Positions 4,848 to 30,416 of a stretch of DNA of 64,000 bases are shown in pieces. The notes beneath the pieces were generated by a model, which saw only the letters and a list, made by a program, of their open reading frames with translations, was not told the DNA's origin and made no database searches. Each line of letters opens with the position of its first letter. The stretch's first letter is position 1. Origin of the DNA: Shigella phage SSP1; the sequence record KY963424; one strand, given 5' to 3'. The position numbers and the translations under genes are program-made.

Positions 4848-4881
4848 GCCCAGCCTGCACTTTTGCGACTGGGCTATTTTT
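4848..4881 (+). terminator. putative intrinsic terminator
   Basis: GCCCAG...CTGGGC stem followed by TATTTTT. Confidence 0.5.
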
Positions 4882-4896
4882 ATAATAAAATTTTAG

Positions 4897-4925
4897 TTGC
4901 TTAGATGCCCAAACTTTTGTATAAT
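4897..4925 (+). promoter_or_regulatory. T5 early-type promoter (TTGCTT-N17-TATAAT)
   Basis: -35 4897-4902, -10 4920-4925, 17-bp spacer. Confidence 0.7.
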
Positions 4926-4956
4926 ATGTTTATAGATTGAGGCAAGAGGATTAAAT

Positions 4957-6574: not shown

Positions 6575-6858
6575 AGTCAGAACCCACACATGAGCTACCA
6601 ACAGCTCATGTAGACTGGCCTAAAGGACTTCAACCTTGTAGCTTTGACTTTAAGTTTGAAAAGAAATTAGCTACAAATGGGGAAGATGGCGTAGTAGTTG
6701 TTGTACCATATAAAGATTGGAATATGTTGGCAAAATGCCGTGAGGCAGAATATTCATATATTTCACGACTGACAAGTATGGTTTGCTTCTATCGCCAAGA
6801 TTTGCAAGAAAAACGTTGTTTAGTATATTATCCACCAATTAACAATAGGAAAGATTAA
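6505..6858 (+). CDS. candidate o-spanin (outer-membrane lipoprotein)
   Basis: Lipobox ITGC after hydrophobic signal; overlapped architecture with upstream TM/coiled-coil gene. Confidence 0.45.
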   Translation: MFNWKLGILLAAAITITGCAQEIESEPTHELPTAHVDWPKGLQPCSFDFKFEKKLATNGEDGVVVVVPYKDWNMLAKCREAEYSYISRLTSMVCFYRQDLQEKRCLVYYPPINNRKD

Positions 6859-7610: not shown

Positions 7611-7622
7611 TCAAGGATCGCT

Positions 7623-8204
7623 ATGACTAATAAAAAAGAAAAGACTAACCTGTTTCACTCCATTCGCCAATCTAATGAGTATACCTTTTTCTTTGATGAA
7701 GAATTAGGCCCGCCGGATGAATACCGTGATTTATCAATGGTACTTATGCAAGCAAATGAGGACGACGAAATTAATCTGATGATTAATGGCCCGGGTGGTT
7801 ATGTTGATACTGCTGCACAGTTATCTAACTTAATTGCTAATTGCCGTGGAACAGTTATAGGACATCTGGTTGGTCCTAGTGCTTCTGCTTACTGCACAAT
7901 TTTCCTATCCTGTCATGGGTGGGTAGTACACCCACATGCTACGCTAATGGGACACACGTTCTCTGGCGGATTCTGTGAGAAGGGTCAAGAAATCAAGAAA
8001 GCCTATGAATCTTACAACAAGTTCGTAGAAGATATGATGCTAGATGTCTACTATCCGTTCTTCTCAATAGACGAAATCGACGAGATGGTAAAAGACAATA
8101 AAAATATCTATCTAGATAGCAAAGAAATCCATAAGCGTATTGAAATCTTGGCAAAATATCGATCTGAGCAATATAATAAAGCCCAGTTATCTCGATCAGA
8201 GTAG
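7623..8204 (+). CDS. ClpP-like serine protease (putative)
   Basis: INGPGGYV...GPSASAYC...HPHA resembles ClpP INSPGG / catalytic Ser / His spacing. Confidence 0.45.
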   Translation: MTNKKEKTNLFHSIRQSNEYTFFFDEELGPPDEYRDLSMVLMQANEDDEINLMINGPGGYVDTAAQLSNLIANCRGTVIGHLVGPSASAYCTIFLSCHGWVVHPHATLMGHTFSGGFCEKGQEIKKAYESYNKFVEDMMLDVYYPFFSIDEIDEMVKDNKNIYLDSKEIHKRIEILAKYRSEQYNKAQLSRSE

Positions 8205-8228
8205 CATAATGAAGAGTAAGTAGTTTTA

Positions 8229-8260
8229 AGCCAGGGTTTAACGACCCTGGCTTTTCTTTT
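8229..8260 (+). terminator. intrinsic terminator
   Basis: Stem AGCCAGGG/CCCTGGCT, loop TTTAACGA, then TTTTCTTTT. Confidence 0.7.
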
Positions 8261-8322
8261 ATCTAAAATTCTTCTTGACAACGACAAAATTTTATGCTCC
8301 AAATAAGATCTTTAAAAACACA

Positions 8323-8351
8323 TTGTAATTTTCCTCCAAAATTAGTATAAT
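8323..8351 (+). promoter_or_regulatory. sigma70 promoter (TTGTAA-N17-TATAAT)
   Basis: -35 8323-8328, -10 8346-8351; RBS GAGGAGG 8363-8369. Confidence 0.6.
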
Positions 8352-8375
8352 GGTACTGGTTAGAGGAGGTTACAA

Positions 8376-9032
8376 TTGGAAAAGTTCTTACAATTATTAA
8401 CGGTACTGCTCCAAGAAGCGAAAGATCCAGCATCGCTTCTTAAACGTCTGCTAACTATCTTAGTTGCTGTCATTATTTTCTTATTTGTTAGTAATACTAG
8501 TGAGGTGATGTCATTCTTAAAGACTTTCTCCACGTCTGCGGTTCTACAGGATGTTCAAACTCAAAGGATAAGTAATTTTCCTAACGTAGCTAGAGAAAAG
8601 AGCATGGTGCTTTTTTCCCAAACGGGTGCGGATGCTGTTTTTGTCGTAAAGTATAAACCCGATGCCGTTAATGATTATTCTAACATTATTGCATGGGAAA
8701 GCAATGCGCAATTAGATAGGACTGACTTGGCCGATAAAGCGGTAAATAAAACGTCTGAGCTATATAGACGACACTTAGACGGCTTTAACTACGCATCGGA
8801 CTTAAGTGTAAAAGTAAATAAATACATGGGGTTAAATATACCTGCGTTTAAGAATGTTACTTTTAATTACATATACACTTGTCCGTATTTCAATCTAAAC
8901 AATATCTATGCTGGATATATTGGTATTGCTTGGAAAGATAATCCTGTAGATGCAGCCGATTCTGAGAAATTTAACGAGTACTTAACAAAGCTCTGTTCCC
9001 CACAACAGAGATCTTTAGGTAGATCAATATGA
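8376..9032 (+). CDS. hol: holin (T5-type)
   Basis: 218 aa, N-terminal TM LLKRLLTILVAVIIFLFV, immediately upstream of and coupled to endolysin; TTG start. Confidence 0.7.
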   Translation: MEKFLQLLTVLLQEAKDPASLLKRLLTILVAVIIFLFVSNTSEVMSFLKTFSTSAVLQDVQTQRISNFPNVAREKSMVLFSQTGADAVFVVKYKPDAVNDYSNIIAWESNAQLDRTDLADKAVNKTSELYRRHLDGFNYASDLSVKVNKYMGLNIPAFKNVTFNYIYTCPYFNLNNIYAGYIGIAWKDNPVDAADSEKFNEYLTKLCSPQQRSLGRSI

Positions 9033-9442
9033 GTTTTAAATTTAGTCAAAGAAGTTTAGATAGATTAAAAGGTGTTCATCCAGACTTAGTAAGAGTAACT
9101 CATAGGGCTTTAGAATTAAGCCCGTATGATTTTACGATTACAGAAGGACTTCGTTCTCTAGAGCAAAGTGCTAAGAATATTGCTAATGGAACCTCGTTTT
9201 TAAAAGACCCAAGCAAATCCAAGCATGTTCAAGGTAGGGCGGTAGATTTTGCTCCACTTAAGGATGGAAAGATTGACTGGAATGACCTAGAATCCTTCAA
9301 GTTAGTGGCAGATGCCTTCTTCAAAGCAGCCGAAGAGCTAGGAGTAAAGATTAGATGGGGTGGTGATTGGAACCAAAATGGAAGTTATAAGGATGAAATC
9401 CAACGAGGTACTTTTGACGGACCACACATAGAACTAGTTTAA
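9029..9442 (+). CDS. lys: endolysin, L-alanyl-D-glutamate peptidase (M15 family)
   Basis: 137 aa; ALELSPYDFTITEGLRS..NIANGTSFLKDPSKSKH..DF..DWND matches recalled T5 endolysin. Confidence 0.85.
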   Translation: MSFKFSQRSLDRLKGVHPDLVRVTHRALELSPYDFTITEGLRSLEQSAKNIANGTSFLKDPSKSKHVQGRAVDFAPLKDGKIDWNDLESFKLVADAFFKAAEELGVKIRWGGDWNQNGSYKDEIQRGTFDGPHIELV

Positions 9443-9453
9443 TTAATAACTGA

Positions 9454-9477
9454 GGCGGGAATATTCCCGCCTTTTTA
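9454..9477 (+). terminator. intrinsic terminator
   Basis: Perfect palindrome GGCGGGAAT/ATTCCCGCC followed by TTTTT. Confidence 0.8.
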
Positions 9478-9519
9478 GGCAAAGGGGGCTTTAATAATTT
9501 TTGAAGATAGGAGAAAGCC

Positions 9520-9936
9520 ATGTTTGCAGAACTATTCCTTATGATGCTGCTGGGTATCTGGAAAATAAGTCTAGTAGTATTCGTTTTAATGATAGTCTTT
9601 ACTATCCTTGCATTAACTACCCGAAATAGCTTATTAATAAAGGTTATTCACGGACTAGAGTATATAATTATGGGTTCATTCGGCGTTTGTAAATGCAATT
9701 GCCATAGAGATACGAAATATTGTTGGTTATGGATGGAACTAGAGAATCCTATATCCATAGCTTTGGCTGTTTCATTCGGCATGATTCTTATGGCCCTTAT
9801 TCTAGCATTAATACCTTTGATGTTAGCTGGGGGAGTTACAGCGTATTTCACCCTTTTCTCCCCGATACTTATGTACTCAATTTACCCAATAACTATGTAT
9901 CTAGTTAGGAGAAGATTTATACATGCAGTAGATTAA
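9520..9936 (+). CDS. hypothetical polytopic membrane protein
   Basis: Several hydrophobic segments across 138 aa. Confidence 0.5.
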   Translation: MFAELFLMMLLGIWKISLVVFVLMIVFTILALTTRNSLLIKVIHGLEYIIMGSFGVCKCNCHRDTKYCWLWMELENPISIALAVSFGMILMALILALIPLMLAGGVTAYFTLFSPILMYSIYPITMYLVRRRFIHAVD

Positions 9937-9949
9937 GATAAAAAAGTAG

Positions 9950-9978
9950 TTGACTTTTAGCCCTAGTTATTGTATAAT
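9950..9978 (+). promoter_or_regulatory. T5 early-type promoter (TTGACT-N17-TATAAT)
   Basis: -35 9950-9955, -10 9973-9978, leader ACATAAATTAGTTAAGAGAGG. Confidence 0.75.
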
Positions 9979-10011
9979 ATATACATAAATTAGTTAAGAG
10001 AGGTATATATT

Positions 10012-10443
10012 ATGTCTGATCGTTTCTATACTCAAATGGCGGAACATTTTCGTATACCACATTACGAGCTAAACATTGCACTCCGTGACCATGACTCTCC
10101 TGAGTACAAAAAGCTCGAAAAGAAAGCGGAAAAATCTATTGATACAAAGGTAGGTGCATCTATGTCTAAGGGCAAAAAGTTAACTCGTCTTGATCTTAAT
10201 AAAATTTTAACTGAACTTTTGGGTACTGATATTGAAGGTGCTAAATTACCGCTTCTTGTACTAGAGACTATGATTAAAAAGGTCAAAAATAAAGAATATA
10301 AGAAGGTAGAAGTCCCAGAAGGCAGATTAAAGGCTCCTTATCAGGAAGCATTAACCGAGTGTTTGGGTGTAAATCTTGATCTGAGCACCGCAACAGTAAA
10401 AACCATGAAAAACTTCTTAGAGGCCATTAATAACTATGAGTAA
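10012..10443 (+). CDS. hypothetical protein
   Basis: ORF downstream of consensus promoter. Confidence 0.55.
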   Translation: MSDRFYTQMAEHFRIPHYELNIALRDHDSPEYKKLEKKAEKSIDTKVGASMSKGKKLTRLDLNKILTELLGTDIEGAKLPLLVLETMIKKVKNKEYKKVEVPEGRLKAPYQEALTECLGVNLDLSTATVKTMKNFLEAINNYE

Positions 10444-18920: not shown

Positions 18921-19261
18921 CGTTATTAAAAATGTATGTTATAATAATCTCATAGATTAACAATAACTCTTATTGTGAACTCTAGGGGCGATGATTATTA
19001 CAACTCTATTTGCGTCTGTGCTATAGCGGCTAGTCTTAGCGCGGGCCAATATTAGAGTTCTTCCGTAATACTCACGCGCCCCACGAGGAATCTCACATGA
19101 AATGGGGGATCATTTACTTTTAAAACATACGAATATATTTAAAGGCAATATTTGTATTCAAGATGATACACTTGTTGCCGCTCTCCATCTCTAGGATCAC
19201 ATACACTTTCCTAGAAACTCCAGAGTTCTCACGAGATATCACACTTCTAGTGGGCGGTTCT

Positions 19262-19333
19262 CCTAAGTTTCTAGGAACATATACTAGGCGGTTAATACAG
19301 GGCGGTTATGGGGAGGGCGGTTATTTCTAGACA
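19262..19333 (+). repeat. four direct copies of GGCGGTT(A/C)
   Basis: GGCGGTT at 19263, 19297, 19311, 19326. Confidence 0.7.
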
Positions 19334-19366
19334 ACATTTTTTGAAAACACATTTTCAGAAATTATT

Positions 19367-19972
19367 GTCGGATTTGCACACTGACATAAGTTTAAAAACT
19401 GGTCGGATTTGCACAATTGCCTAAGTTTTTAGGAACATATAATCTCCTGAAAATGCCAGCATTATTTCGGGCCGAAGGCCCATGGTTGCCTGAGTTTTTA
19501 GAGCCACAGAAATTTTCACTTGTCAAGCTATTTTGCCCCATTTAGCAAATAAAATTTTACTTTATCTCCACTAATCTCAAATTAACCCAAATCTTCTCAA
19601 CTCTTCCCCAAAATCCCCACAAATCAGGTGCTCCGCACCAAACATGCGCCCCTCTAGCTTCCCCCCCCCCCCTAATTTTCTCTCGCTCTCTCAACTTCTC
19701 CCCAAACCCACACAATCACACACCCTCTCATCGAAGTCACAAAAATATTCCTGAAACCATAAATCTGTCTCCTAGTAAACTCGTGTCGGATTTGCACATA
19801 CCCCACAGGATTCGAACGCAGTTCGAGATTGCTGGAGTTTTTGGGAAAATTCATTGTCGGATTTGCACACTATAAAAATTTTTCGGGTCGGATTTGCACA
19901 CTACCAAAAATTGTCGGATTCGCACATACACGCCCGCACGTAACACCCGTGGAGCAATGTCGGTTTTGCACA
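19367..19972 (+). repeat. dispersed array of seven copies of 14-mer GTCGGATTTGCACA
   Basis: Exact copies at 19367, 19402, 19785, 19856, 19887; one-mismatch copies at 19913 and 19959; same orientation. Confidence 0.85.
19661..19672 (+). repeat. C12 homopolymer within a G-depleted C/A/T-rich tract
   Basis: Twelve consecutive C; surrounding 19560-19780 has about 6 percent G on + strand. Confidence 0.85.
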
Positions 19973-20002
19973 AAAGCGCAGGGCAATTGCCCTGCGCTAA
20001 AT

Positions 20003-20160
20003 ACGAATGATAATAAGAATCATTCTCATTTAAAAAGCGGAATGAGAATGATAATAATTCGCATTTAGAAAGTGAAATGAGAATCAATCTCATTTAAAAA
20101 GTGGAATGATTCTCATTTAGATAGTGGAATGCAAATGATAATGATTCGCATTTAAGAACG
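20003..20160 (+). repeat. tandem array of degenerate AT-rich palindromic repeats (AATGAGAAT...ATTCTCATT / TGATAAT cores)
   Basis: About five tandem units each ending CATTTA(R)AAAG; extra copy at 20491-20512; resembles Fur-box-like GATAAT arrays. Confidence 0.6.
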
Positions 20161-20161
20161 G

Positions 20162-20295
20162 AAGTGAGAAACACTGTTATTTAAGTTATCCACAGACTTA
20201 TCAACAGCACGATTTGACTTGACAAAACCCTAGCCATTTTGAAGCGTTATTAACAGACTTATCCACAGCTTATCCTACTGTATAAATATACAGTA
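20162..20295 (+). repeat. left arm of about 135-bp imperfect inverted repeat carrying DnaA boxes
   Basis: Reverse complement of 23553-23686 aligns with few mismatches; TTATCCACA at 20186-20194 and 20259-20267, TTATCAACA at 20198-20206. Confidence 0.8.
20276..20295. promoter_or_regulatory. LexA (SOS) box-like palindrome TACTGTATAAATATACAGTA
   Basis: 19 of 20 matches to E. coli LexA consensus TACTGTATATATATACAGTA. Confidence 0.55.
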
Positions 20296-20550
20296 TTCCT
20301 ACGCAGTGAATAATTCTAATATAGCGTTAAAACGCTCTCAAACGCATTCTAACGCGTTTAATTTTGGTGGGGATACTAAATCAAGGGCAAAATTGAAGGA
20401 GGCTTGAAAATTAGTTAGCGCGCTAACGATCACACAAGGCGACACGTAACACCCGAATCATTAGCAGGCTAACCATCGCGGGCGCGGTCAAATGAGAATG
20501 ATTATCATTTGAAAATTGGGGCACTTCCAGATAGTTGCGCCCCGTGATTA

Positions 20551-20745
20551 TTAGTCTGGTAGTCGATGCGTGATCTTTTCCTCCTCCCCATATGAGTCCA
20601 CCAAATACTTATAATAACCATCGTGATCATAAATCACTTTATCATATTCGCCACGCTCAACCGCTTGTCGGTTTTCCGGCGTATCGGGCACGTAAAAAAC
20701 ATCAACCATTGTACTAGTTTTGGTTACAACAATTTTATTGCTCAT
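20551..20745 (-). CDS. hypothetical protein (cassette gene 8)
   Basis: 64-aa ORF, GC-richer composition, last gene of minus-strand cassette. Confidence 0.45.
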   Translation of the reverse strand: MSNKIVVTKTSTMVDVFYVPDTPENRQAVERGEYDKVIYDHDGYYKYLVDSYGEEEKITHRLPD

Positions 20746-20855
20746 AATAACTCCCTAGTAAATATATTTTTGCCAATAGTGGCGAACGTTATCGCCCCCA
20801 GCGGAATCATTAGCGGCCTTACTATTACCAACGAAAGTATATAATCTCATTAGTA

Positions 20856-21017
20856 TTATTTTCCTTGCATTAATTTATATATAACGAACATTCCGCAAAA
20901 CTGCCCTAATATAGTGCAGACAACAAGGGATAACACAATATTGCCGATTGTGTTATAAATAACCATACCAACAATAAGGGATAACGCATATCCTAGCAAA
21001 GCAATATAAACAGCCAT
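20856..21017 (-). CDS. small two-TM membrane protein (cassette)
   Basis: ATG one nt after upstream stop; hydrophobic MAVYIALLGYALSLIVGMVIY and LSLVVCTILGQFCGMFVIY. Confidence 0.45.
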   Translation of the reverse strand: MAVYIALLGYALSLIVGMVIYNTIGNIVLSLVVCTILGQFCGMFVIYKLMQGK

Positions 21018-21018
21018 A

Positions 21019-21363
21019 TTATTTACCCATTTTTCGAAACGCTGTTTCAATACTATCAGCCGTGGATTGAATATATGCTCCTTTCATTATCAGGCGCTCG
21101 GTGCACACCTTACGGAAAATATTAATAAAATCATCCTCATTTTCTGCAATTAATGCTTCACCCATAACCTGAACGTCGCAAGCTGCAAAGGTTAAAAATT
21201 GAAACGCTAGTTCACGGGCAACGACCGCATTGATTTTATAATGCGCCTTACCCTCATAAATATTAATAACGCCCTTATATGCTGGCGAAAGCTGGTTTAA
21301 ATAGCTTGCTAATAATGCCGGGCGGCAGTTAGCAACAAAACGATTTCCCTCATAAATAACCAT
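21019..21363 (-). CDS. hypothetical protein (cassette)
   Basis: 114-aa ORF with GGGAGG RBS supplied by upstream small ORF. Confidence 0.55.
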   Translation of the reverse strand: MVIYEGNRFVANCRPALLASYLNQLSPAYKGVINIYEGKAHYKINAVVARELAFQFLTFAACDVQVMGEALIAENEDDFINIFRKVCTERLIMKGAYIQSTADSIETAFRKMGK

Positions 21364-21364
21364 T

Positions 21365-21490
21365 TTATAACCTCCCGATCAGATAGCCCGATAATAACAT
21401 AAAGATCCCCAGCGAAAGAGGATCATTCTTAAATAAGGTGGCGATAAAACCGCCAGCCATTGCAAGGGCAATAACAATAACGCTTTTCAT
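21365..21490 (-). CDS. small hydrophobic peptide (41 aa, cassette)
   Basis: ATGA overlap with upstream stop; sequence MKSVIVIALAMAGGFIATLF...; below track cutoff. Confidence 0.4.
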   Translation of the reverse strand: MKSVIVIALAMAGGFIATLFKNDPLSLGIFMLLSGYLIGRL

Positions 21491-21699
21491 AGTACCCCAC
21501 GAAACGCAGCGTAAAAGGTGGCAAAGTGCCTAACCGTTTCAAGGATCACGTTGCCGCGCTTGTCGAATTTCTTTTCAGTAACACGAAAAGCGTTTTTGTT
21601 ACGTGCTACATATTCGATTTTACAATCTGGACGCTCGAATGTGTTAGCATCCACCAGCTTAAAACCTTTCGAACGTGCAAGAGAAACGTTACGAATCAT
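21487..21699 (-). CDS. hypothetical protein (cassette)
   Basis: 70-aa ORF translationally coupled to neighbours. Confidence 0.5.
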   Translation of the reverse strand: MIRNVSLARSKGFKLVDANTFERPDCKIEYVARNKNAFRVTEKKFDKRGNVILETVRHFATFYAAFRGVL

Positions 21700-21701
21700 T
21701 T

Positions 21702-21881
21702 TTATTCTCCTTTACTATTCATGCAGCCCAGCAGATAAGAAAATGCAGCGATACCCGCGCCAATAATAACCATTGGTTTTGTGACTACTAAACCGCAATA
21801 ATCTTGAATGCCGTAAGCGGTGGCGAAAAGGGTCAAAATAGCGCCCAAGATACCCGCCAGAATAGCTCGAAAAATAACCAT
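21702..21881 (-). CDS. small two-TM membrane peptide (59 aa, cassette)
   Basis: GGGGAG RBS; MVIFRAILAGILGAILTLFATAYG...MVIIGAGIAAFSYLLG; below track cutoff. Confidence 0.45.
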   Translation of the reverse strand: MVIFRAILAGILGAILTLFATAYGIQDYCGLVVTKPMVIIGAGIAAFSYLLGCMNSKGE

Positions 21882-21931
21882 TTTTTAATACTCCCCTAGT
21901 TAGTGGGGCGAAAGTAACGCCCCGTTATTAA

Positions 21932-22162
21932 TTACATTAAGATAATTTTTGCAGCTTGTTTTTTGGTGCAATGTTCCGCCTTCAGGGTATCCAGCAAAAA
22001 GCCCGCTGTTTGTTGATCGATTTGATCATTATCATAAAGCGTCTGGATGGTGTTATAAGTTTTAGCAATGCCGTATTCTTGGACCATTTCTTGAATAATC
22101 CAGCGATTTGATACCCAGCCTTTACCAGTGAAAAGAGCGTCAGAAGAAGAAAAAGCAACCAT
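21932..22162 (-). CDS. hypothetical protein (cassette)
   Basis: 76-aa ORF on cassette strand. Confidence 0.5.
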   Translation of the reverse strand: MVAFSSSDALFTGKGWVSNRWIIQEMVQEYGIAKTYNTIQTLYDNDQIDQQTAGFLLDTLKAEHCTKKQAAKIILM

Positions 22163-22277
22163 TTTAAGCCTCCAAATTTTTGGGAAAATTTTCGACCGTC
22201 CTCAAACGGTGTAAAGGCATTATAACAAAAAAGGCCACCATAAAAGGCGACCTTTACAAAACTTTACAATAGGCTAG

Positions 22278-23267
22278 TTATTGCTCGTTTTCGGTGTTAT
22301 TGGTAAAAGTAGAAATATCGATACCTTTTACCATTTCATCGATCATCTCAGCGATGTTAAAACTTTGGACCATTTCCAACATTGCCGCTTCCATAGCCGC
22401 CCCCGCTACCGCTTTCGCTTTCTGGTTACTCGGGGCGTACTGGTCAACCGCTACACTCAGCAGGTTAGCGATCACTACACGACCAACCGGCGTATCAATA
22501 TAGCCTTTGATCATGAACGGTGCTTTTTTAGCCGCTACTTTCGTGATTTGAGTTAGTGCAATTTTACCCGCTTCCAGTTTTGCAGCGTTTACAACGGCAG
22601 ACTTATTGGCGGCAACGATGTTAGCAATCTTGGTCATAGTGTTTTTTCCTTTATTTTCAGTAGTTTGAGTGTGAACGCTTTTAGTGTTAGAATTTACAGC
22701 ATGTTTTTCTATATTGCCAATACTTTCTTCCCTTTCGAAAGAAAATCCGGCGTCAACAATATCGCCGTCATATACCCGATTATATAACTCCGACGGTAGC
22801 AAAAAATTACCGTTATCATCAAAGGCCATTATAGCCGCAAAACGATACCCATCAGAATCCGACCGATTCCAGCCAACTGATAAATAACGCCAAAATGAAT
22901 CAAGAAAATTTTCTACGTCATAAAGATCATTATCATTGGCCTCATAGTTTTCTATTGAAAAAACTTCTAAGCCCGCCCCAGTATCATAGGCTTTTACTGT
23001 GTTGCCTTTTACGATTATGAAATCAGTATCCGGCCCCCGACTAGTGAGTAATTGATAATCCTGATTATACAAAACAAGCGTTGCCCCTTGCTTATATAAC
23101 GGTAGAAAACTATTCATATTATAAGCATCATAAGCATCAAAAAAGTTTTGATGAATAGTTTCAATATTGAAAACAAAATGTTTAATGCTGGTGGTCCTGC
23201 TACCATCCAGCAGGTTACGCAGCGCACCTTTTAAGACGGTTGCGTTATCTGGTTTATATAGCCTCAT
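22278..23267 (-). CDS. hypothetical 329-aa protein (first and largest cassette gene)
   Basis: Long ORF with RBS GAGGAGG; N-terminal Asp/Tyr-rich domain and Ala/Lys-rich helical C-terminal half; no motif I recognise. Confidence 0.6.
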   Translation of the reverse strand: MRLYKPDNATVLKGALRNLLDGSRTTSIKHFVFNIETIHQNFFDAYDAYNMNSFLPLYKQGATLVLYNQDYQLLTSRGPDTDFIIVKGNTVKAYDTGAGLEVFSIENYEANDNDLYDVENFLDSFWRYLSVGWNRSDSDGYRFAAIMAFDDNGNFLLPSELYNRVYDGDIVDAGFSFEREESIGNIEKHAVNSNTKSVHTQTTENKGKNTMTKIANIVAANKSAVVNAAKLEAGKIALTQITKVAAKKAPFMIKGYIDTPVGRVVIANLLSVAVDQYAPSNQKAKAVAGAAMEAAMLEMVQSFNIAEMIDEMVKGIDISTFTNNTENEQ

Positions 23268-23552
23268 TTGTTGGCCTCCTCGTTAATCGGTGAGTGAATG
23301 ATAAGGGTAATTTTCTAGTATAGGCAAAGATTATTTTACTTTTTTATTTTCCTTGCCTAGTGCCTAATTTTATGCTAACCGCGCAGCGGTGTAATAAAGA
23401 GCAAAACACGGCGAAGCCACCAGGGCGCCGCATTGCCGCCACCTGGCCAACGTGTTGGGCCTTTACTTTAATATTACCCCGCAGCGTTTAGCTCGTTAGA
23501 AAGCGTTTTAGGCGGCCTAAAATTGATTGCAGTCGTTAACACTGCCTTTCTA

Positions 23553-23572
23553 CCCTGTATATTTATACAGTA
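23553..23572. promoter_or_regulatory. LexA box-like palindrome (CTGTATATTTATACAG core)
   Basis: CTGT-N8-ACAG with AT spacer, 17 of 20 to LexA consensus; inverted copy of the site at 20276-20295. Confidence 0.5.
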
Positions 23573-23686
23573 GGATAACCTGTGGATAACTCTGTGTAAA
23601 AGTCCCCATATCGCCGCCTATTGTGTCAAATTATTTTGTGCTGTGGATAACGTTGTGGATAACTTAAATGATAGTGGTTCTCACTT
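23553..23686 (+). repeat. right arm of inverted repeat carrying DnaA boxes
   Basis: TGTGGATAA at 23581-23589, 23642-23650, 23654-23662; reverse complement matches 20162-20295. Confidence 0.8.
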
Positions 23687-23696
23687 ATGCCGATAG

Positions 23697-23765
23697 TTTC
23701 TTATAGTTATTATTATAATGGTGATGATTACATATAGCTATTATTATAGTGGTGATGATTTCATA
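23697..23765 (+). repeat. AT-rich direct repeats (two copies of about 31 bp)
   Basis: AGTTATTATTATAATGGTGATGATTACATAT and AGCTATTATTATAGTGGTGATGATTTCATAT in tandem inside a 350-bp AT-rich non-coding stretch. Confidence 0.75.
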
Positions 23766-24045
23766 TAGTTATTATTTCTCATTAATTTATAAGTATATTA
23801 TATATCATGAAATAGTTAGTTGGCTAATGAGATTTTCCGTGATTAATAGTCTGCTAATAGTTCAGGCCGTTACAATCCACCAGCATGATTATCATCCTAG
23901 CAATTATTAGTCTGCTATCTTTCCGATGCATACTAACAAATAAAAGTCAATTAATTAATTTTATAAAATAAGTCATTTGATCTTGATTTTTAAAAGTCAA
24001 GACCTTTTCCAACTATTTTTCAATTTTGCGTTTGTTAATGATTTG

Positions 24046-24285
24046 TTAAGTCGAAAATAGGCGGCCTAAAACGCCCCAGAACGCAATAAAGTTTTTAGCC
24101 ATCCCATCATAAGGGGATATGCCGTTTATCGCTGCCACGAGGTTTTTGGATTTTGTCAAGTAGGGCAGGGCAAATATAAATGAAAAAATTACTTGCCTAT
24201 TTGCTTTGTTTTGTGGTATTCGCGCGCCCGTTTCTTTTAATTTTGGGCCGTCGCCGGACGTGGTGCGGAAAACTGTATTAGCCAT
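24046..24285 (-). CDS. hypothetical protein (doubtful)
   Basis: 79-aa minus-strand ORF without clear RBS or promoter. Confidence 0.25.
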   Translation of the reverse strand: MANTVFRTTSGDGPKLKETGARIPQNKANRQVIFSFIFALPYLTKSKNLVAAINGISPYDGMAKNFIAFWGVLGRLFST

Positions 24286-24286
24286 A

Positions 24287-24314
24287 TTGCTAATAATTTT
24301 GATATAATATAATA
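24287..24314 (+). promoter_or_regulatory. sigma70 promoter (TTGCTA-N16-TATAAT)
   Basis: -35 24287-24292, -10 24309-24314, upstream of HNH gene with AGGAG RBS. Confidence 0.5.
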
Positions 24315-24342
24315 ACCAAATGAAACTAATAGGAGAATACTA

Positions 24343-24684
24343 ATGATTGAACTAACAAAAGATATTGATTTAGAAACCGTACTAGATAACCTTTACTATG
24401 ATGAAACTAGTCCTAGTTGCCTACGGTGGAAAGTATCCCGCCCCGGTTGCGCCCTTCATGGGGTAGCAGGTACTAAACGGAAGGATGGCTATTGGTCTGT
24501 TCAACTAAATAAAGAGCGTTATCTTGCGCATCGTATTGTGTGGTTACTATTTAATTATAAAATAGATAGCAAACTAGTAATTGATCATATTGATCGTAAT
24601 CCTAGTAACAATTTTATTGATAACTTACGGTTAGTAACTCAAGCCGAAAACAACCAAAATAAAGGAGAGTATAGAAAGGCGTAA
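24343..24684 (+). CDS. HNH homing endonuclease
   Basis: LAHRIVWLLF...IDHIDRNPSNNFIDNLRLVTQAENN HNH_3 motif; AT-rich relative to neighbours. Confidence 0.75.
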   Translation: MIELTKDIDLETVLDNLYYDETSPSCLRWKVSRPGCALHGVAGTKRKDGYWSVQLNKERYLAHRIVWLLFNYKIDSKLVIDHIDRNPSNNFIDNLRLVTQAENNQNKGEYRKA

Positions 24685-24804
24685 AATTTACATTTCTTTA
24701 CAAATATAAGGTTGCGCCTTTTTCGTTATTTGTTATTATTTATCTCGTAGGGCGGCAATGACGAACTACACGGCGGGAAGTTTACCGCCGCGCTCTTTAA
24801 AAAT

Positions 24805-24828
24805 TGGGTATATCTTAAAGCCTATCGG
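24805..24828 (+). repeat. left copy of 24-bp inverted repeat TGGGTATATCTTAAAGCCTA(T/C)CGG
   Basis: Reverse complement of 25075-25098 with one mismatch. Confidence 0.8.
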
Positions 24829-24862
24829 CGGTAAACTTATTACATTATAAGGAATCGACGAT

Positions 24863-25066
24863 ATGAAACAAACTTTATTGATCACTGGTAAACCTAGCAA
24901 GGCACTGGATAGCAAAACAAAAAATTTATTGACAGTAGCGCAAAGATCGGTAAAATATCGATTTGAGCAGTACAAGAAAGGCCGCCAGCAAGGTTTAGAA
25001 ATGATCTGGCGAAATATTATGATCGACCTGAAGGAAAATCATAAAAAACTGCAAAAAATAGTTTGA
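24863..25066 (+). CDS. hypothetical basic 67-aa protein flanked by inverted repeats
   Basis: ORF with AAGGAA RBS lying between the two 24-bp repeat copies. Confidence 0.45.
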   Translation: MKQTLLITGKPSKALDSKTKNLLTVAQRSVKYRFEQYKKGRQQGLEMIWRNIMIDLKENHKKLQKIV

Positions 25067-25074
25067 CAACATAG

Positions 25075-25098
25075 CCGGTAGGCTTTAAGATATACCCA
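25075..25098 (-). repeat. right copy of 24-bp inverted repeat
   Basis: CCGGTAGGCTTTAAGATATACCCA is reverse complement of left copy. Confidence 0.8.
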
Positions 25099-25296
25099 GT
25101 TCGATAAGAGCGATAACTTGATACAATTTGACGGTCGGTACTTACCATAATGTGCCCCGCCCCCTAACTGGGATATAGCGGCCCGCGTGGAGTTCCTTAA
25201 ATTGATTTTATAATGGCGAGCGGATTTTTTCTTATTACCTGTTATTTTCCAGCAGGTAATGCGGAACAATCCCCTAAATAACTTGGAGTTTATACC

Positions 25297-25548
25297 ATGA
25301 AAAACGTTATTACCGCGCCTAAAATTGGTCAATCTGTTTTCATCCCTTTCGTTACTAAAACGGATGAATTAACCGGAAAAGCCGAACGTATTAAAGGCGC
25401 GGCGCTCATGCCGTTCGATACAATCGATGCGGTATACGCTGAAACAGAACGCAGTAACAACGGCAAGCCGATTTATAACGTTCGCGTTAAATCTGGCGAC
25501 GTTGTAAAGGTTGTTCAACGCAACGAAAAATGGGAAGCCGTTTTATAA
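25297..25548 (+). CDS. hypothetical pre-early protein
   Basis: ORF preceded by conserved leader CCCCTAAATAACTTGGAGTTTATACC. Confidence 0.55.
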   Translation: MKNVITAPKIGQSVFIPFVTKTDELTGKAERIKGAALMPFDTIDAVYAETERSNNGKPIYNVRVKSGDVVKVVQRNEKWEAVL

Positions 25549-25562
25549 TTTAGTGTTAACTT

Positions 25563-25590
25563 TATATGCCCCAGTAGTTCGGGGCATATA
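25563..25590 (+). other. GC-cored hairpin without U-tract (pre-early intergenic punctuation)
   Basis: 10-bp stem TATATGCCCC/GGGGCATATA with 8-nt loop. Confidence 0.6.
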
Positions 25591-25646
25591 ACGATTAACA
25601 TTATGTTAATCTTATCCCTTAAATTAAATTAATTGGAGTTTATATC

Positions 25647-26054
25647 ATGACTAACGTTAAAGCCGCAAAATTCACCTGGAACGAAGAAAACACCCAAAAA
25701 GCTGTTACCATGTATCAGCAGTTAATCAATGAAAACGGATTAGAATTCGCAAACAGCGACGGCCTGAAAGAGATTGCGAAAGCAGTGGGCGCGACTTCTC
25801 CCGTGTCAGTTCGTTCGAAATTGACCAGCGCGAAAGCCTATCAAAAAAGCGATAAGCCTCGCAAGGTTGGCGGCGGTAGCTCAATCCGCAAGGCTCATTA
25901 TGTGCGAGTAATTGCAAGACACGCCATCGATTCCGGCATTATCAAAGACGCCGATGATCTGGCAAGCCTTGAAAGCGCGAAGCTGGAAACGCTGGACGCC
26001 GTGGCGCAGTTGTTAGGCGTTGCCGATGAGGTGAAACAAGCCGCAGGCGAATAA
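25647..26054 (+). CDS. hypothetical pre-early protein
   Basis: ORF preceded by leader CCTTAAATTAAATTAATTGGAGTTTATATC. Confidence 0.55.
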   Translation: MTNVKAAKFTWNEENTQKAVTMYQQLINENGLEFANSDGLKEIAKAVGATSPVSVRSKLTSAKAYQKSDKPRKVGGGSSIRKAHYVRVIARHAIDSGIIKDADDLASLESAKLETLDAVAQLLGVADEVKQAAGE

Positions 26055-26062
26055 ATTTAATT

Positions 26063-26088
26063 AGTGGGGATTATTCCCCACTATTTTC
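26063..26088 (+). terminator. hairpin / possible terminator
   Basis: Stem AGTGGGGA/TCCCCACT loop TTAT followed by ATTTTCC. Confidence 0.5.
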
Positions 26089-26109
26089 CCCTTGATTGGA
26101 GTTTTTAAA

Positions 26110-26307
26110 ATGATCTTTTACCCCACTGAATCGCTCATTCTAGGCTTATTTATTATGGCGGCCTCGTTATTGTTCGCATATTTTCAAAATGATTTAGATT
26201 CGTATTATTTTAAACGCAAATCTAAGTTAGCGAAGCGTTTGGGCCTGATTTGTTTTATTGCCGCCGTTGCTTGTGGTGTTAGTTCTAGCCTGATGCCGAT
26301 TAGTTAA
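26110..26307 (+). CDS. small two-TM membrane protein (pre-early)
   Basis: ATG after TTGGAGTTTTTAAA leader; hydrophobic LILGLFIMAASLLFAYF and LGLICFIAAVACGV. Confidence 0.5.
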   Translation: MIFYPTESLILGLFIMAASLLFAYFQNDLDSYYFKRKSKLAKRLGLICFIAAVACGVSSSLMPIS

Positions 26308-26319
26308 ATATTGCAAATT

Positions 26320-26345
26320 ATAACGCCTATTATTGGAGGCGTTAT
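26320..26345 (+). other. intergenic hairpin
   Basis: Stem ATAACGCCT/AGGCGTTAT. Confidence 0.55.
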
Positions 26346-26347
26346 AT

Positions 26348-26364
26348 TTGGCAATATTTGCCAA
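26348..26364. promoter_or_regulatory. 17-bp palindrome TTGGCAA-TAT-TTGCCAA (operator-like)
   Basis: Perfect 7-bp half-sites, located about 40 bp upstream of A1 start. Confidence 0.4.
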
Positions 26365-26404
26365 TAACAAACGTTTTTTAATCCCTTTAATGGAGTTTAT
26401 TATT

Positions 26405-28075
26405 ATGATTATTTCCGCAGAAAAACAAACCGTTATCCTGAAGCTGGCCGCTGACTTTAATTTCTATGGTAAACGTCTGCGCGCCACTAAATTGGAAGTA
26501 TGTGACGATATTTCGAAAGCGGTATACGATACACCGAAACACTCTACCGCGATTTGTGATTGGCTGGAAGCAAATAAACCAGCGAAACCGAAAACGGCAA
26601 AAGTAGCAAAAGCTATTAAAAACGACGAGCGCCCCGAGGCGGCTGGAATTATTTCTAGCACGGTGGAACAGTGGGAAGTAAAGCAGGGCAAACGCTTTAT
26701 TATTACATCGATTCAGAATAATACTTTCCCGCATAAAAACTTTTTGGCCTCACTGGAACAATACGCTAAATTTATCGGCGCTGATTTACTTGTTTCTAAG
26801 TATATTTATAACAAAAACGGCTTTCAAAATGGTGAAGGCGCGGACGGTGTAAAATATGATTCCGCGTTTGATAAGTATATTTGCAGCAAAAACGTGTTTT
26901 TAAATAACCGCCGTTTTGCTTTCATGGCTGAAATTAATGTTCTGCCCACTGCAGACTATCCGCTGTCTGGATTCGCAGAAACTGCAACGGCTCTCAATCT
27001 TGAAGGTCTGGCAATTGGTCACGCTAAAATCACCGCCGAAAGCGTGCCAGCTCTCAAAGGTGAAGTAGTACGCCGCATGTACTCAACCGGAACGGCAACA
27101 CTCAAAAACTACATTCAGCAGAAAGCAGGACAGAAAGCGGAAGCACTGCATAATTTCGGTGCGCTGATTGTTGAGTTCGACGAAGACGGTGAGTTTTTTG
27201 TGCGCCAGCTTGAAACGATGGACGAAAGCGGCATGTTTTACGATTTGAATATTTGCGCGACCCCCGCCGGATGTTATGAAACATCGGGGCATGTTTTAGG
27301 TTTACAATATGGCGACATACACGCCGAAAAACTTGATGAGGAGTGCGCCGCAGCGTCATGGGGTCATGGTGATACTTATGGGCTAGTGGATATTCTTAAA
27401 CCTAAATATCAGTTTGTGCATGACGTTCACGATTTTACATCACGCAACCATCACAACCGCGCTTCAGGTGTATTTCTAGCGAAACAGTATGCAGCCGGAC
27501 GTGACAAGGTTCTGGATGATCTCATCGACACCGGGCGCGTGCTGGAATCAATGGAACGTGATTTTAGTCAAACGATCATTGTCGAATCTAATCACGATCT
27601 GGCGCTATCCCGTTGGCTTGATGATCGCAATGCTAACATTAAAGACGATCCAGCCAACGCGGAACTGTATCACCGCCTTAATGCTGCGATTTACGCGGCA
27701 ATCGGTAATCATGACGATACTTTCAACGTGCTGGATTATGCGCTGCGTACGGTTGCAGGTTGCGAGTTTAACGCGATTTTCCTGACAACTGACCAATCGT
27801 TTAAAATCGCAGGCATTGAATGCGGCGTACACGGTCACAACGGCATTAACGGGAGCCGTGGCAATCCGAAGCAATTCAAGAAATTGGGCAAGTTAAACAC
27901 GGGGCACACCCACACCGCCAGCATTTACGGCGGCGTTTATACCGCTGGCGTCGCTGGTTCCCTCGATATGGGCTATAACGTTGGCGCGTCAAGCTGGACG
28001 CAAACGCATTTAATTACCTATGCAAACGGCCAGCGCACTTTGATTGACTTTAAAAACGGCAAATTTTTCGCATAA
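26405..28075 (+). CDS. A1: A1 pre-early protein (metallophosphatase-fold, host DNA degradation/takeover)
   Basis: 556 aa from ATG 26405 as recalled for T5 A1; phosphoesterase motifs GDIHAE and GHGD; conserved pre-early leader. Confidence 0.75.
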   Translation: MIISAEKQTVILKLAADFNFYGKRLRATKLEVCDDISKAVYDTPKHSTAICDWLEANKPAKPKTAKVAKAIKNDERPEAAGIISSTVEQWEVKQGKRFIITSIQNNTFPHKNFLASLEQYAKFIGADLLVSKYIYNKNGFQNGEGADGVKYDSAFDKYICSKNVFLNNRRFAFMAEINVLPTADYPLSGFAETATALNLEGLAIGHAKITAESVPALKGEVVRRMYSTGTATLKNYIQQKAGQKAEALHNFGALIVEFDEDGEFFVRQLETMDESGMFYDLNICATPAGCYETSGHVLGLQYGDIHAEKLDEECAAASWGHGDTYGLVDILKPKYQFVHDVHDFTSRNHHNRASGVFLAKQYAAGRDKVLDDLIDTGRVLESMERDFSQTIIVESNHDLALSRWLDDRNANIKDDPANAELYHRLNAAIYAAIGNHDDTFNVLDYALRTVAGCEFNAIFLTTDQSFKIAGIECGVHGHNGINGSRGNPKQFKKLGKLNTGHTHTASIYGGVYTAGVAGSLDMGYNVGASSWTQTHLITYANGQRTLIDFKNGKFFA

Positions 28076-28082
28076 TTAAATT

Positions 28083-28110
28083 TATAAGCGGGGTATATAC
28101 CCCGCTTATA
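28083..28110 (+). other. GC-cored hairpin without U-tract
   Basis: Stem TATAAGCGGGG/CCCCGCTTATA around TATATA loop. Confidence 0.6.
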
Positions 28111-28142
28111 TCCCTTATTAAATTAATTGGAGTTTTATAACT

Positions 28143-28535
28143 ATGAAAAAGCAAAATATCCCATTCGATCGCGCTCAATCTTCCATCGTTCTGGTTTATT
28201 CTAATGGTGAGCGGTATCACGTTGAGGCCGGTCACGTTGTTGATGATTTAATCGACTTTAATGACGCTTTACAGATTACTACTTTCGCCTATACGCAAGG
28301 CCGCGCAAGTAGTCACATCAAGGCCGCAGGCGTTTATGTTGATACGGTGAAGCAGGAAACGATTATCATCGACGCCGTAAAATCCGGTCTAGCCTTTGCA
28401 GTTGTCGCGCCTTGTCCAGCTTGCTTTGATGATCAGCTATCGAGCGCAAAGGTATATATCTGCGCGGGTGTTCGTTCTCATGTATCCGGCGAAGATATTA
28501 GTTTCATCGCTGATGCGTTGGCTTATGGTCTTTGA
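28143..28535 (+). CDS. A2: A2-like pre-early protein (assignment by position and size)
   Basis: 130-aa ORF between A1 and dmp with conserved leader TTAAATTAATTGGAGTTTTATAACT. Confidence 0.45.
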   Translation: MKKQNIPFDRAQSSIVLVYSNGERYHVEAGHVVDDLIDFNDALQITTFAYTQGRASSHIKAAGVYVDTVKQETIIIDAVKSGLAFAVVAPCPACFDDQLSSAKVYICAGVRSHVSGEDISFIADALAYGL

Positions 28536-28548
28536 TAGTTGATTTATT

Positions 28549-28575
28549 ATTGCCCGCTGATAAATAGCGGGCAAT
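28549..28575 (+). other. GC-cored hairpin without U-tract
   Basis: 10-bp stem ATTGCCCGCT/AGCGGGCAAT, loop GATAAAT. Confidence 0.6.
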
Positions 28576-28615
28576 GCTGGATAAACTAAATCCCTTTAAT
28601 GGAGAACGTAACAAA

Positions 28616-29350
28616 ATGAATCAAGTTAAAATGAATATTACCCGTAATTTCCCGCATATTTCCCGCGTCATGATTTGGGATCTGGACGGAACAATCATTA
28701 ATTCATTCCATCGTGTCGCGCCTTGCTTTGATAGCGAGGGTAATTTAGATTTAAATAAGTATAAGAATGAAGCGTGTAAGCATCATTTAATAATGCAAGA
28801 TACCTTATTGCCTTTGGTTGAATATATGCGCCAGTGCATGAATGACGCAAATACTTTAAACATTATTTGTACCGCTCGACTAATGAGCAAATCGGACTAT
28901 TATTATTTGCGCAAACAAGGCTTACGCGGTCGTGGGGATAGTAATATCCGCGTGTTTTCCCGCGATACGCTGCATAAATATTTTGAAGCTGATAAAGTTA
29001 GCGAAATATACCACAGTAAGGACGCAGTTTATAAATCGTATTATTTTGAGCTATTCAAACAACTATATCCGAACGCTGATTTTACAATGATTGATGATCA
29101 TAAAGGTGTATTATCAGCGGCAGCGTCATACGGATTTAAAACGCTGGACGCGCAAGCCGTTAATGATATTCTATCAATCGGCGTGGCATTGATAGGCGGA
29201 ACCTTTATTGATGAATCTCTCGATGATGATAATGATTATCAGTTCCTAGCGGACCGCTTAAAACTATGTTGGGAAAGCATGACCGAAGAAGAACGCGCAG
29301 AATATAGTTGCAGCCCGCAACAATATATTGAGAAATTAAAAGTTGCGTAA
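28616..29350 (+). CDS. dmp: 5-prime-deoxyribonucleotidase (HAD family)
   Basis: 244 aa from ATG 28616 as recalled for T5 Dmp; HAD motif I WDLDGTI. Confidence 0.75.
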   Translation: MNQVKMNITRNFPHISRVMIWDLDGTIINSFHRVAPCFDSEGNLDLNKYKNEACKHHLIMQDTLLPLVEYMRQCMNDANTLNIICTARLMSKSDYYYLRKQGLRGRGDSNIRVFSRDTLHKYFEADKVSEIYHSKDAVYKSYYFELFKQLYPNADFTMIDDHKGVLSAAASYGFKTLDAQAVNDILSIGVALIGGTFIDESLDDDNDYQFLADRLKLCWESMTEEERAEYSCSPQQYIEKLKVA

Positions 29351-29526
29351 TAATTAAAATTGAAATAGTTTCATCCTGTAATTAAAAATGGTTGCAGGGT
29401 GAAACAGTTAGCAGGGTAATAGTCACGGGGGTGGCGGTTAGCAGACTAAGTATTTTCGCCCTAGCCACTGGACTCACCCACGCGTACGTAATCCAAAGAA
29501 TTTGGCAAAAGTCATTTTAGCGCTAA

Positions 29527-30024
29527 TTAATTATGATTTGCAAACTCACCGTGATAGTGCTCCCTGGCTTTTCTAAGTTCTTTTTCAGCCTGCTCAAGAG
29601 TTTTAAAAGTTCCCACGGTAATCCTATTGCCATTTACACGTAATTTTGCTTCGAACTTTTCCTCACCACGTTTATATACTCCCTTAACTCCGGTAGACTC
29701 ATTCTTCCATCCCGAAGAGTTTTTGCCATTCTCTGCATTTGTTGCTTTACGCAGGTTATTCCATCTATTGTTGAAAGGATCTTGATCTTTATGATCAATG
29801 AGAAACTCACTCGGATCTTCTCCTGTCATGTATAGATATGCTACCCGATGGGCTTTATATAACCCATTACTGCCCATTGATAGGGATATTCCTGAGCTGT
29901 TTCTACTGCCTGCTGGCTTACCTTTACGACTTCCCGAGTTCCAAGTAAAGATACCAGTTCCAGGATCATAATCAAATTTCTTCTGGTATTCTGCTAAGGG
30001 CAGTAGAGGTTTATGATTTGCCAT
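29527..30024 (-). CDS. HNH homing endonuclease with AP2-like domain
   Basis: AHRVAYLYMTGEDPSEFLIDHKDQDPFNNRWNNLRKATNAEN; 165 aa, paralog of 5634-6131. Confidence 0.75.
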   Translation of the reverse strand: MANHKPLLPLAEYQKKFDYDPGTGIFTWNSGSRKGKPAGSRNSSGISLSMGSNGLYKAHRVAYLYMTGEDPSEFLIDHKDQDPFNNRWNNLRKATNAENGKNSSGWKNESTGVKGVYKRGEEKFEAKLRVNGNRITVGTFKTLEQAEKELRKAREHYHGEFANHN

Positions 30025-30229
30025 CTATCTTGGATCTCCTCCGAGAACTTCTTGAACCGTCATTCCACTCCCGCTCAAACTCCGCACGTTTCTCATCAAA
30101 CTTCCGCTCCCTTTCCGCAATCTCCCGCGATACTTCCGCAATATATTTACGATGCTTGTTGATTGCCGCAGTCGTCCCGAAAACTCCCGCGAGTATCCCG
30201 ATAATAAAAGCAATTACAATACTAAACAT
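30011..30229 (-). CDS. small single-pass membrane protein with charged C-terminus
   Basis: TM segment FSIVIAFIIGILAGVFGTTAAI then Arg/Glu-rich tail; coupled to upstream ORF. Confidence 0.5.
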   Translation of the reverse strand: MFSIVIAFIIGILAGVFGTTAAINKHRKYIAEVSREIAERERKFDEKRAEFEREWNDGSRSSRRRSKIDGKS

Positions 30230-30416
30230 CTAATTCCCTCTCAATTTGCAGAATACGGGTGCTATCACAACGTTGCAGTAGTACTAGCTTTTCTAGAATA
30301 ACTTGTTGTTGTTTCACCTGAGCTTCTAGAGTTTTTAGGCGGAGATACACGATACGAGAGACAATGAGGATTACCCAGACTAATATTACTATTAGTGTAA
30401 CTGCCACCTCCATCAT
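30222..30416 (-). CDS. small single-pass membrane protein
   Basis: TM segment VAVTLIVILVWVILIVSRIVYL; ATGA overlap with upstream ORF. Confidence 0.5.
   Translation of the reverse strand: MMEVAVTLIVILVWVILIVSRIVYLRLKTLEAQVKQQQVILEKLVLLQRCDSTRILQIERELDV

Follow-up and report, generated by a model that had tools for sequence, protein, structure and literature searches.

The DNA described here is a window of 64,000 nucleotides (nt) from the genome of Shigella phage SSP1 (sequence record KY963424), to which all positions refer unless another genome is named. By homology the window is Tequintavirus (T5-like, Demerecviridae) genome sequence, in an orientation that is reverse-complemented with respect to the reference records. 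The block at 18921-30300 comprises a rightward arm with the genes dmp, A1 and A2, a leftward arm with homologues of T5 open reading frames (ORFs) 011-016, a non-coding region that corresponds to the injection-stop region of T5, and two HNH genes. An earlier reading of this sequence (hereafter the original prediction) had regarded the block as a collapsed terminal repeat lying between the end of the late module and the early genes. This is borne out by homology and by the topology of the flanks: positions 19501-29473 are very probably the long direct terminal repeat of T5 type (first-step-transfer DNA), present in the window as a single copy into which the assembler merged the two virion copies. 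The reading is built on the observed homology, boundaries, gene content, repeat anatomy, topology and shift in codon usage. The block is ordinary and previously described, and as a known feature it had been recognized correctly.

Homology, boundaries and topology

The block was compared with 50,697 phage records using megablast. Matches were found in 543 records, nearly all of them from phages of Salmonella, Escherichia and Klebsiella. The best match was Salmonella phage SPC35 (HQ406778, Tequintavirus) with an identity of 98.4%, positions 3-9779 of SPC35 corresponding to 19295-29471 of the window on the opposite strand; positions 1..9573 of SPC35 are annotated as 'left TR; comprises first-step-transfer (FST) DNA' (TR, terminal repeat). 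The block is collinear over its whole length with the annotated repeats of the reference phages, the identities being 98.4% for SPC35, 80-93% for MM-1 and 83-89% for T5. Regarding the gene content, dmp, A1, A2 and T5p007 are the four genes kept in all T5-like first-step-transfer regions (Davison 2020), and all four were found, with BLASTP identities to the T5 proteins of 96%, 96%, 95% and 90%, respectively; the earlier claim that the block carries A1, an A2-like gene and dmp was correct, the A2-like gene being a full-length A2 orthologue. The injection-stop architecture is complete as well, with eight DnaA/DnaA* boxes in four pairs (3 bp between the boxes of every pair) within a 132-nt inverted repeat, the direct repeats DRE and DRD, and the nick-1 motif.

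The limits of the repeat were determined with BLAST by mapping onto the window three references whose repeats are annotated, namely SPC35 (left 1..9573, right 108779..118351; 9,573 bp), MM-1 (left 1..10407, right 107633..118039) and T5 (AY587007, AY543070; left 1..10139, right 111614..121752; 10,139 bp). In all three (3/3), genome position 1 and the start of the right repeat both fall on 29473 and the end of the repeat on 19501, and the sequences flanking both termini on either side are conserved between these references and the window. The predicted long direct terminal repeat (pre-early region) is accordingly located at 19501..29473 on the minus strand and has a length of 9,973 bp; in T5 convention its first base, which is the left genome terminus and also begins the right repeat, is 29473, and its last base is 19501. 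The limits originally proposed, 18921-30300, enclose the repeat but overshoot these homology-mapped ends by 580 bp on the left, which is unique non-coding DNA, and by 827 bp on the right, which is unique DNA in which an HNH gene and a gene for a small membrane protein are located.

SPC35 resembles the window in gene order, in the positions of the ends and in the four contexts of the motif TTGGAGTTT described below. Compared with the repeat of SPC35 (9,573 bp), the window has an insertion of approximately 430 bp at 24255-24686, which accounts for the repeat length of 9,973 bp. The insertion contains an HNH homing-endonuclease gene of 113 amino acids inside the repeat (24343..24684, plus strand; Pfam HNH_3, E = 7e-17; phrog_99). 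Its site is empty in T5, SPC35, MM-1, Kenya-K16 and Kenya-K18 (5/5), the alignments breaking at approximately 24244-24268 and resuming at 24687; the gene is distantly related (47-64%) to the split ORF010/ORF009 of T5, which is located at a different site. Another HNH gene, of 165 amino acids and probably also encoding a homing endonuclease, lies outside the repeat at 29527..30024 on the minus strand, 54 nt from the predicted terminus (phrog_99, E = 6.5e-56). It has no counterpart in T5, SPC35 or MM-1, the alignments of which skip the positions between 29523 and 30054, and is found at the same place in Kenya-K18.

SPC35, which was deposited in virion form with both repeat copies, differs from the window in lacking this HNH gene next to the terminus and in a right flank that is just 86% identical. 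When 19501-34877 was compared, the identity to SPC35 was mosaic, with 99.85% over 19501-24254, about 97% over 24687-29523 and the above 86% in the right flank, and the left flank was closest to Klebsiella phage KPP2018 (95.9%). This mosaic suggests that recombination took place close to the HNH sites and to the borders of the repeat. T5 shares with the window the genes dmp, A1, A2 and T5p007, the divergent arms, the inverted repeats A/A', palindromes A and B, the inverted repeats IRC/IRD with DnaA boxes, the direct repeats DRC, DRD and DRE, the nick-1 motif and homologous termini. At the DNA level the two are about 84-88% identical. The window differs from T5 in having neither ORF003 nor the ORF009/ORF010 insertion, in carrying ORF011 and ORF012 as one gene of 329 amino acids, and in its eight DnaA-type boxes, whereas seven were reported for T5.

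On both sides the repeat is joined to unique DNA. Where it meets the right end of the unique region, the junction sequence (29474..29523, minus strand) is the one found directly before the right repeat in the reference phages, and the alignments of SPC35, MM-1 and T5 cross the start of the repeat there. Beyond 29523 the alignments continue to a small membrane-protein gene, a Cor/llp-type gene (30824-31090), pb5 (31176-32933), terminase and portal genes. Where the repeat meets the left end, the junction sequence (19285..19500, minus strand) is the one that directly follows the left repeat; it holds two more DRD copies (at 19367 and 19402) and corresponds to the overrun of the T5 'Repeat Region 3'. 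Alignments of the left repeats pass the repeat end into the window below 19501, toward the early genes; for example, T5 9214..10356 aligns to 20410..19285 and crosses the end of the left repeat at T5 10139. The two flanks of the repeat are therefore the opposite ends of the unique region in the virion-form references, with llp, pb5 and terminase at one end and the first early genes at the other. A self-comparison within the 64-kb window revealed neither a second nor a partial copy of the repeat.

An order of right unique end, repeat and left unique end is impossible in a virion-form record, and the window must consequently come from a circle, from the junction of two units in a concatemer or from an assembly with merged repeats. 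Virion DNA of SSP1 would carry the repeat twice, with one copy at each physical end, whereas replicative concatemers or circles would have one copy between unit genomes; circles lack one repeat (Davison). A short-read assembler that merged two identical copies and circularized the contig would yield the observed order. For phage phiR2-01, a draft of 112,795 bp had a depth of approximately 2000x over the repeat as compared with approximately 1000x elsewhere, and the true genome has 122,696 bp (PMC8624392); the doubled coverage of the repeat was thus measured in phiR2-01. The same internal single-copy layout is seen in the GenBank records of SP33 and PH204 (approximately 110 kb each) and in many other GenBank records of 91-111 kb, and AKFV33, shown 'excluding the terminally redundant DNA', has one embedded copy, as does the window. 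If the terminal-repeat reading is true, the genome should be re-opened at 29473 as the left terminus, and a second copy of the 9,973-bp repeat should be added at its opposite end. The minus strand of the record is the forward strand in T5 convention. The virion genome would then be about 10 kb longer than the single-copy assembly, and repeat genes that were counted once would occur twice.

Composition, codon usage and alternative readings

The GC (guanine plus cytosine) content of the block at 18921-30300 was 40.78%, compared with 38.81% for the whole window, 37.27% for the left flank and 39.01% for the right flank. The block ranked highest among windows of 11.4 kb, and the top ten sliding blocks started at 18601-19601. 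The elevated GC content that had been claimed relative to the flanks is therefore real and persists on exact sliding-window computation, but the excess is small (2-3.5 points) and not unique, since the value is 40.6% for 52001-61973 and as high as 43% for 2-kb windows at 54-56 kb. The genes that contribute most to it are A2 (50%) and, at 46% each, A1 and the ORF002 homologue; in the middle of the block, the non-coding stretch has a GC content of just 36.4%.

A codon-usage computation, which had been proposed as a check, gave a clearer difference than the overall GC content. The pooled GC content at third codon positions (GC3) was 0.407 for the repeat genes, 0.318 for the left (early-gene) flank and 0.274 for the right (late-gene) flank. 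The median per gene was 0.40 within the repeat and 0.297 outside (Mann-Whitney p = 6e-6), and only 4% of the outside genes reached the repeat median. The host-usage index (similarity to Escherichia coli codon usage, calculated from an approximate codon table) was 0.665 for the repeat genes versus 0.56 and 0.58 for the flanks (p about 1e-5). Among the repeat genes scored, the HNH gene at 24343-24684 was exceptional, with the lowest GC3 (0.27) and the lowest host-usage index (0.571). The T5 repeat genes show the same shift of GC3 (0.38 versus 0.30), and the repeats of the references have a GC content of 40.1-41.1% as compared with 36.7-39.8% in the adjoining DNA; because of this shared shift, the composition is regarded as a trait of the family and not as the mark of a foreign island.

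The slightly higher GC content reflects the higher third-position GC and the more host-like codons of the pre-early genes. These genes may be under selection for host-like codon use, the presumable reason being that they are translated by the unmodified host machinery before the tRNA genes of the phage early region enter the cell. In the literature searched, this explanation by tRNA timing was not found stated. Two tRNA genes, Ile-GAT and Met-CAT, at 780-1028 mark the early region in the window; the rest of a T5-type cluster presumably lies beyond it.

Three alternatives to a merged terminal repeat at 19501-29473 were considered. The same compositional data could be taken as the mark of an island acquired by horizontal transfer and foreign in composition, as the block has the highest GC content of any 11-kb stretch in the window, has a GC3 clearly above both flanks and includes an HNH homing-endonuclease gene; however, hundreds of T5-like phages have the entire block in synteny and at an identity of 84-98%, the references annotate it as terminal repeat, T5 itself exhibits the same GC3 shift, and the sole clearly mobile gene (24343-24684) has values near the flank medians, unlike the rest of the block. 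In view of the family-wide synteny and the GC3 shift of T5 a foreign island was rejected as extremely improbable. It is also conceivable that SSP1 has lost its terminal redundancy, or packages circularly permuted DNA by a headful mechanism, and that the single copy is the true genome structure. The window indeed holds one copy, and the sequence by itself does not prove two copies per virion. All Tequintavirus members with characterized ends (T5, BF23, phiR2-01, SPC35 and MM-1), though, have a long direct repeat at both of them, the sequences flanking the termini and the adjacent terminase genes are conserved in SSP1 (86-96% DNA identity), and the apparatus for two-step injection (A1, A2 and the injection-stop region) is intact, which makes such a loss very improbable.

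The exact limits are less firmly placed. Those annotated as 'DTR' differ between Kenya-K18 and Kenya-K16, and neither set agrees with T5, SPC35 and MM-1; they were judged less reliable and used solely for estimating the uncertainty. Since they differ, the true ends could be shifted, and 19501 and 29473 are taken as homology-based predictions with an uncertainty of up to a few hundred nt. The repeat of SSP1 might, for instance, reach farther out and take in the HNH gene at 29527-30024, or stop within the injection-stop region, so that 19501-29473 would be approximate. In favor of such different limits are the Kenya annotations, which do not coincide with T5-type ends, the position of an HNH insertion absent in T5, SPC35 and MM-1 just 54 nt beyond the predicted terminus, and the range of repeat lengths in the family of 8,081-12,854 bp (Davison 2020). 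They are nevertheless considered unlikely, given that both termini are flanked by sequence conserved with respect to three references whose ends agree mutually, that Kenya-K18 has the same HNH gene annotated outside its repeat, and that the length variation of the family stems from internal insertions and deletions (Davison 2020). What weighs against a T5-type repeat with the ends and the explanation given here is that its limits are off by 32 and 101 nt from those in Kenya-K18 and by several hundred nt from those in Kenya-K16, that duplication and exact termini in SSP1 are deduced by sequence comparison, that the host codon table behind the usage index is approximate, and that the tRNA-timing account of the codon shift is inferred. 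The T5-type terminal repeat at 19501-29473 is retained as the preferred reading, and it is a textbook first-step-transfer region which as such adds nothing new on phage biology.

The divergent pre-early arms

The rightward arm (plus strand) contains, in this order, T5p007, A2, a small membrane protein, A1, the ORF002 homologue and dmp. The T5p007 (9.2 kDa protein) homologue is located at 25297..25548 (90% identity to the T5 protein; Pfam DUF7177, E = 8e-43) and is followed by A2 at 25647..26054, which encodes the DNA-binding protein for second-step transfer (95% over the full 135 amino acids of T5 A2; phrog_1725). The gene at 26110..26307 encodes a small membrane protein, named 'A1 protein precursor' in the T5 annotation (97% to T5 ORF006; phrog_4820). 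The DNA transfer protein A1, which is required both for the second step of transfer and for shutting off the host, is encoded at 26390..28075 (96% over 527 amino acids; phrog_1745, E = 1.8e-244), with an uncertain start codon within 26333-26492. The homologue of T5 ORF002, of unknown function, lies at 28143..28535 (84%; phrog_4576), and dmp, encoding deoxynucleoside-5'-monophosphatase, at 28574..29350 (96% to T5 Dmp over 244 amino acids; phrog_415; also dmp in the SPC35 annotation), the start equivalent to that of T5 being at approximately 28616. Hairpins at 26062-26083 and 28536-28588 are the counterparts of T5 palindromes B and A, respectively. A perfect 28-nt palindrome, TATAAGCGGGGTATATACCCCGCTTATA, was observed at 28083-28110 in the gap that separates A1 from the ORF002 homologue. 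An extra gene, ORF003, occupies this position in T5 and MM-1 and is absent from SSP1 and SPC35.

The promoter region of the A2-A1-dmp arm was assigned to 24791..25112 (plus strand). It is delimited by the arms of inverted repeat A/A' (24791-24829 and 25074-25112) and overlaps a small ORF at 24863-25066 (phrog_4718). Two candidate sigma-70 sites, identified by consensus matches only, are TTGACA-16-TAAAAT at 24929-24956 and TTGACA-17-TAAGAT at 25063-25091; these candidate promoters sit where T5P2/T5P1 (T5 4663-4880) map via the T5 alignment, between inverted repeats A and A'.

According to the original prediction, A1, the A2-like gene and dmp share a conserved leader. Against an expectation of 0.01, the motif CCCTTA..TTGGAGTTT occurs twice in the window, once before A2 (25616-25641) and once before the ORF002 homologue (28112-28135). 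Its core TTGGAGTTT occurs four times, always within 25283-28135 and each time 5-6 nt before an ATG (at 25297, 25647, 26110 and 28143), and includes the Shine-Dalgarno sequence GGAG. The motif thus precedes A2, but TTGGAGTTT was not found upstream of A1 or dmp. As the number of exact copies is four in SPC35, one in MM-1 and zero in T5, it does not represent a family-wide leader either. A 'conserved pre-early leader' was therefore rejected in favor of the GGAG ribosome-binding-site context of four genes, which comprise neither A1 nor dmp.

The leftward pre-early arm (20551..23267, minus strand) consists of homologues of T5 ORF011-016, which were identified by BLASTP (67-96% to the T5 proteins), Pfam, PHROG and the SPC35 annotation. 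From right to left these are a fused ORF011+ORF012 gene of 329 amino acids (22278-23267; Pfam DUF7566), ORF013 (21932-22162), ORF014 (21702-21881), ORF015 (21487-21699) and ORF016 (21019-21363), followed by one further gene at 20551-20745, all on the minus strand. Given the single gene of 329 amino acids in SSP1, ORF011 and ORF012 of T5 are probably one gene that was split either by the T5 annotation or by a mutation in T5.

The injection-stop region

The 132-nt inverted repeat is present in two copies with an identity of 76.5%. The copy at 23555..23686 (minus strand) has the structure IRC-spacer-IRD and four DnaA boxes in two pairs (23654, 23642, 23593 and 23581, minus strand); IRC and IRD of T5 are annotated at T5 6022-6152. 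The copy at 20162..20293 (plus strand) has the structure IRD'-spacer-IRC' and two DnaA/DnaA* box pairs, the boxes of each pair being 3 bp apart, namely TTATCCACA-GAC-TTATCAACA at 20186/20198 and TTATTAACA-GAC-TTATCCACA at 20247/20259. The stretch homologous to this latter copy is labeled 'injection stop signal (iss)' in AY543070. Paired DnaA boxes in inverted repeats are a pattern described for T5-like phages (Davison).

Next to it, DRE/DRC direct repeats and palindromes occupy 20008..20184 (plus strand), where T5 has annotations for direct repeat C and palindromes E-I; a further copy is found at 20487-20519. The region includes an 81-nt direct repeat (20017-20097 and 20104-20184, 80% identical) as well as 33-nt families. 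The palindrome GCGCAGGGCAATTGCCCTGCGC at 19976..19997 contains the motif CCCTGCGC of the T5 'major nick 1 (7.9%)' and aligns to nick 1 of T5 (9661-9668). Five DRD repeats (GTCGGATTTGCACA) lie inside the terminal repeat at 19785..19972 (plus strand). Regarding the window as a whole, DRD yielded 11 matches versus 0.18 expected, seven of which form an array at 19367-19972, compared with nine copies annotated in T5. The array extends past the end of the repeat, as it does in T5, for which an overrun of 270 bp is reported (Davison). The DRD-like matches at 62030-62058 are located within an ORF of 639 amino acids and were discarded as probable chance matches. The stretch at 19560-19740 (plus strand), located in the final 240 nt of the repeat, is strongly G-poor and rich in C, T and A and contains 13 consecutive C at 19661-19673; this homopolymer could be a site of sequencing error.

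The conserved A1, A2 and injection-stop region suggest that SSP1 would inject its DNA in two steps, a process which pauses after approximately 8% of the genome and was experimentally verified only in T5 and BF23 (Davison 2020). By analogy to these phages, the left repeat copy would be the first DNA to enter the cell, led by the terminus equivalent to 29473, and transfer would pause near the injection-stop region, equivalent to about 19950-20300 (DnaA-box inverted repeats, DRE/DRC/DRD and the 7.9% nick). Host RNA polymerase would then transcribe the two divergent pre-early arms, and Dmp, A1 and A2 would degrade the host DNA, shut off the host and permit the entry of the remaining 92% of the genome.

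Some of the palindromes in this region resemble boxes for the host regulator Fur. The Fur 7-1-7 motif TGAnAATnATTnTCA, searched with at most one mismatch, gave seven matches in the window, six of which are in the repeat, versus 0.49 expected for the whole window. Five matches fall into the non-coding injection-stop repeats, where they form a cluster at 20014-20507, e.g., AATGAGAATCATTCTCATT, which belongs to the T5 'direct repeat C / palindromes E-I'. Palindromes of the AATGAGAATCATTCTCATT type recur in T5, in MM-1 and in the distant Sugarlandvirus KpGranit. Arrays of two to three copies with a spacing of 29-35 bp were present in Klebsiella phage KP2025 (PP919962, 1480-1546), in the Seunavirus KE23 (PP856722, 1504-1547) and in KpGranit (1503-1587). 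The array of KpGranit is located in its terminal repeat; those of KP2025 (unclassified) and KE23, which are unrelated enterobacterial phages of approximately 149 kb, are intergenic or overlap only a small hypothetical ORF. Such shared arrays suggest a binding module for a host factor. A link between Fur and T5 was not found in the literature searched, and the injection-stop palindromes are regarded as doubtful candidates for Fur boxes, that is, as a lead and not as a result. If they were Fur boxes, host Fur-Fe could join the nucleoprotein block that pauses DNA transfer, or could make the pre-early events iron-sensitive. Together with the host-like codons, the Fur-like palindromes may serve as cheap, testable leads to how the pause in T5 injection comes about. 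A perfect palindrome of Fur type at 29227-29241 was set aside from these candidates, as it lies inside dmp, forms the codons for DDDNDYQ and may be a coincidence of coding.

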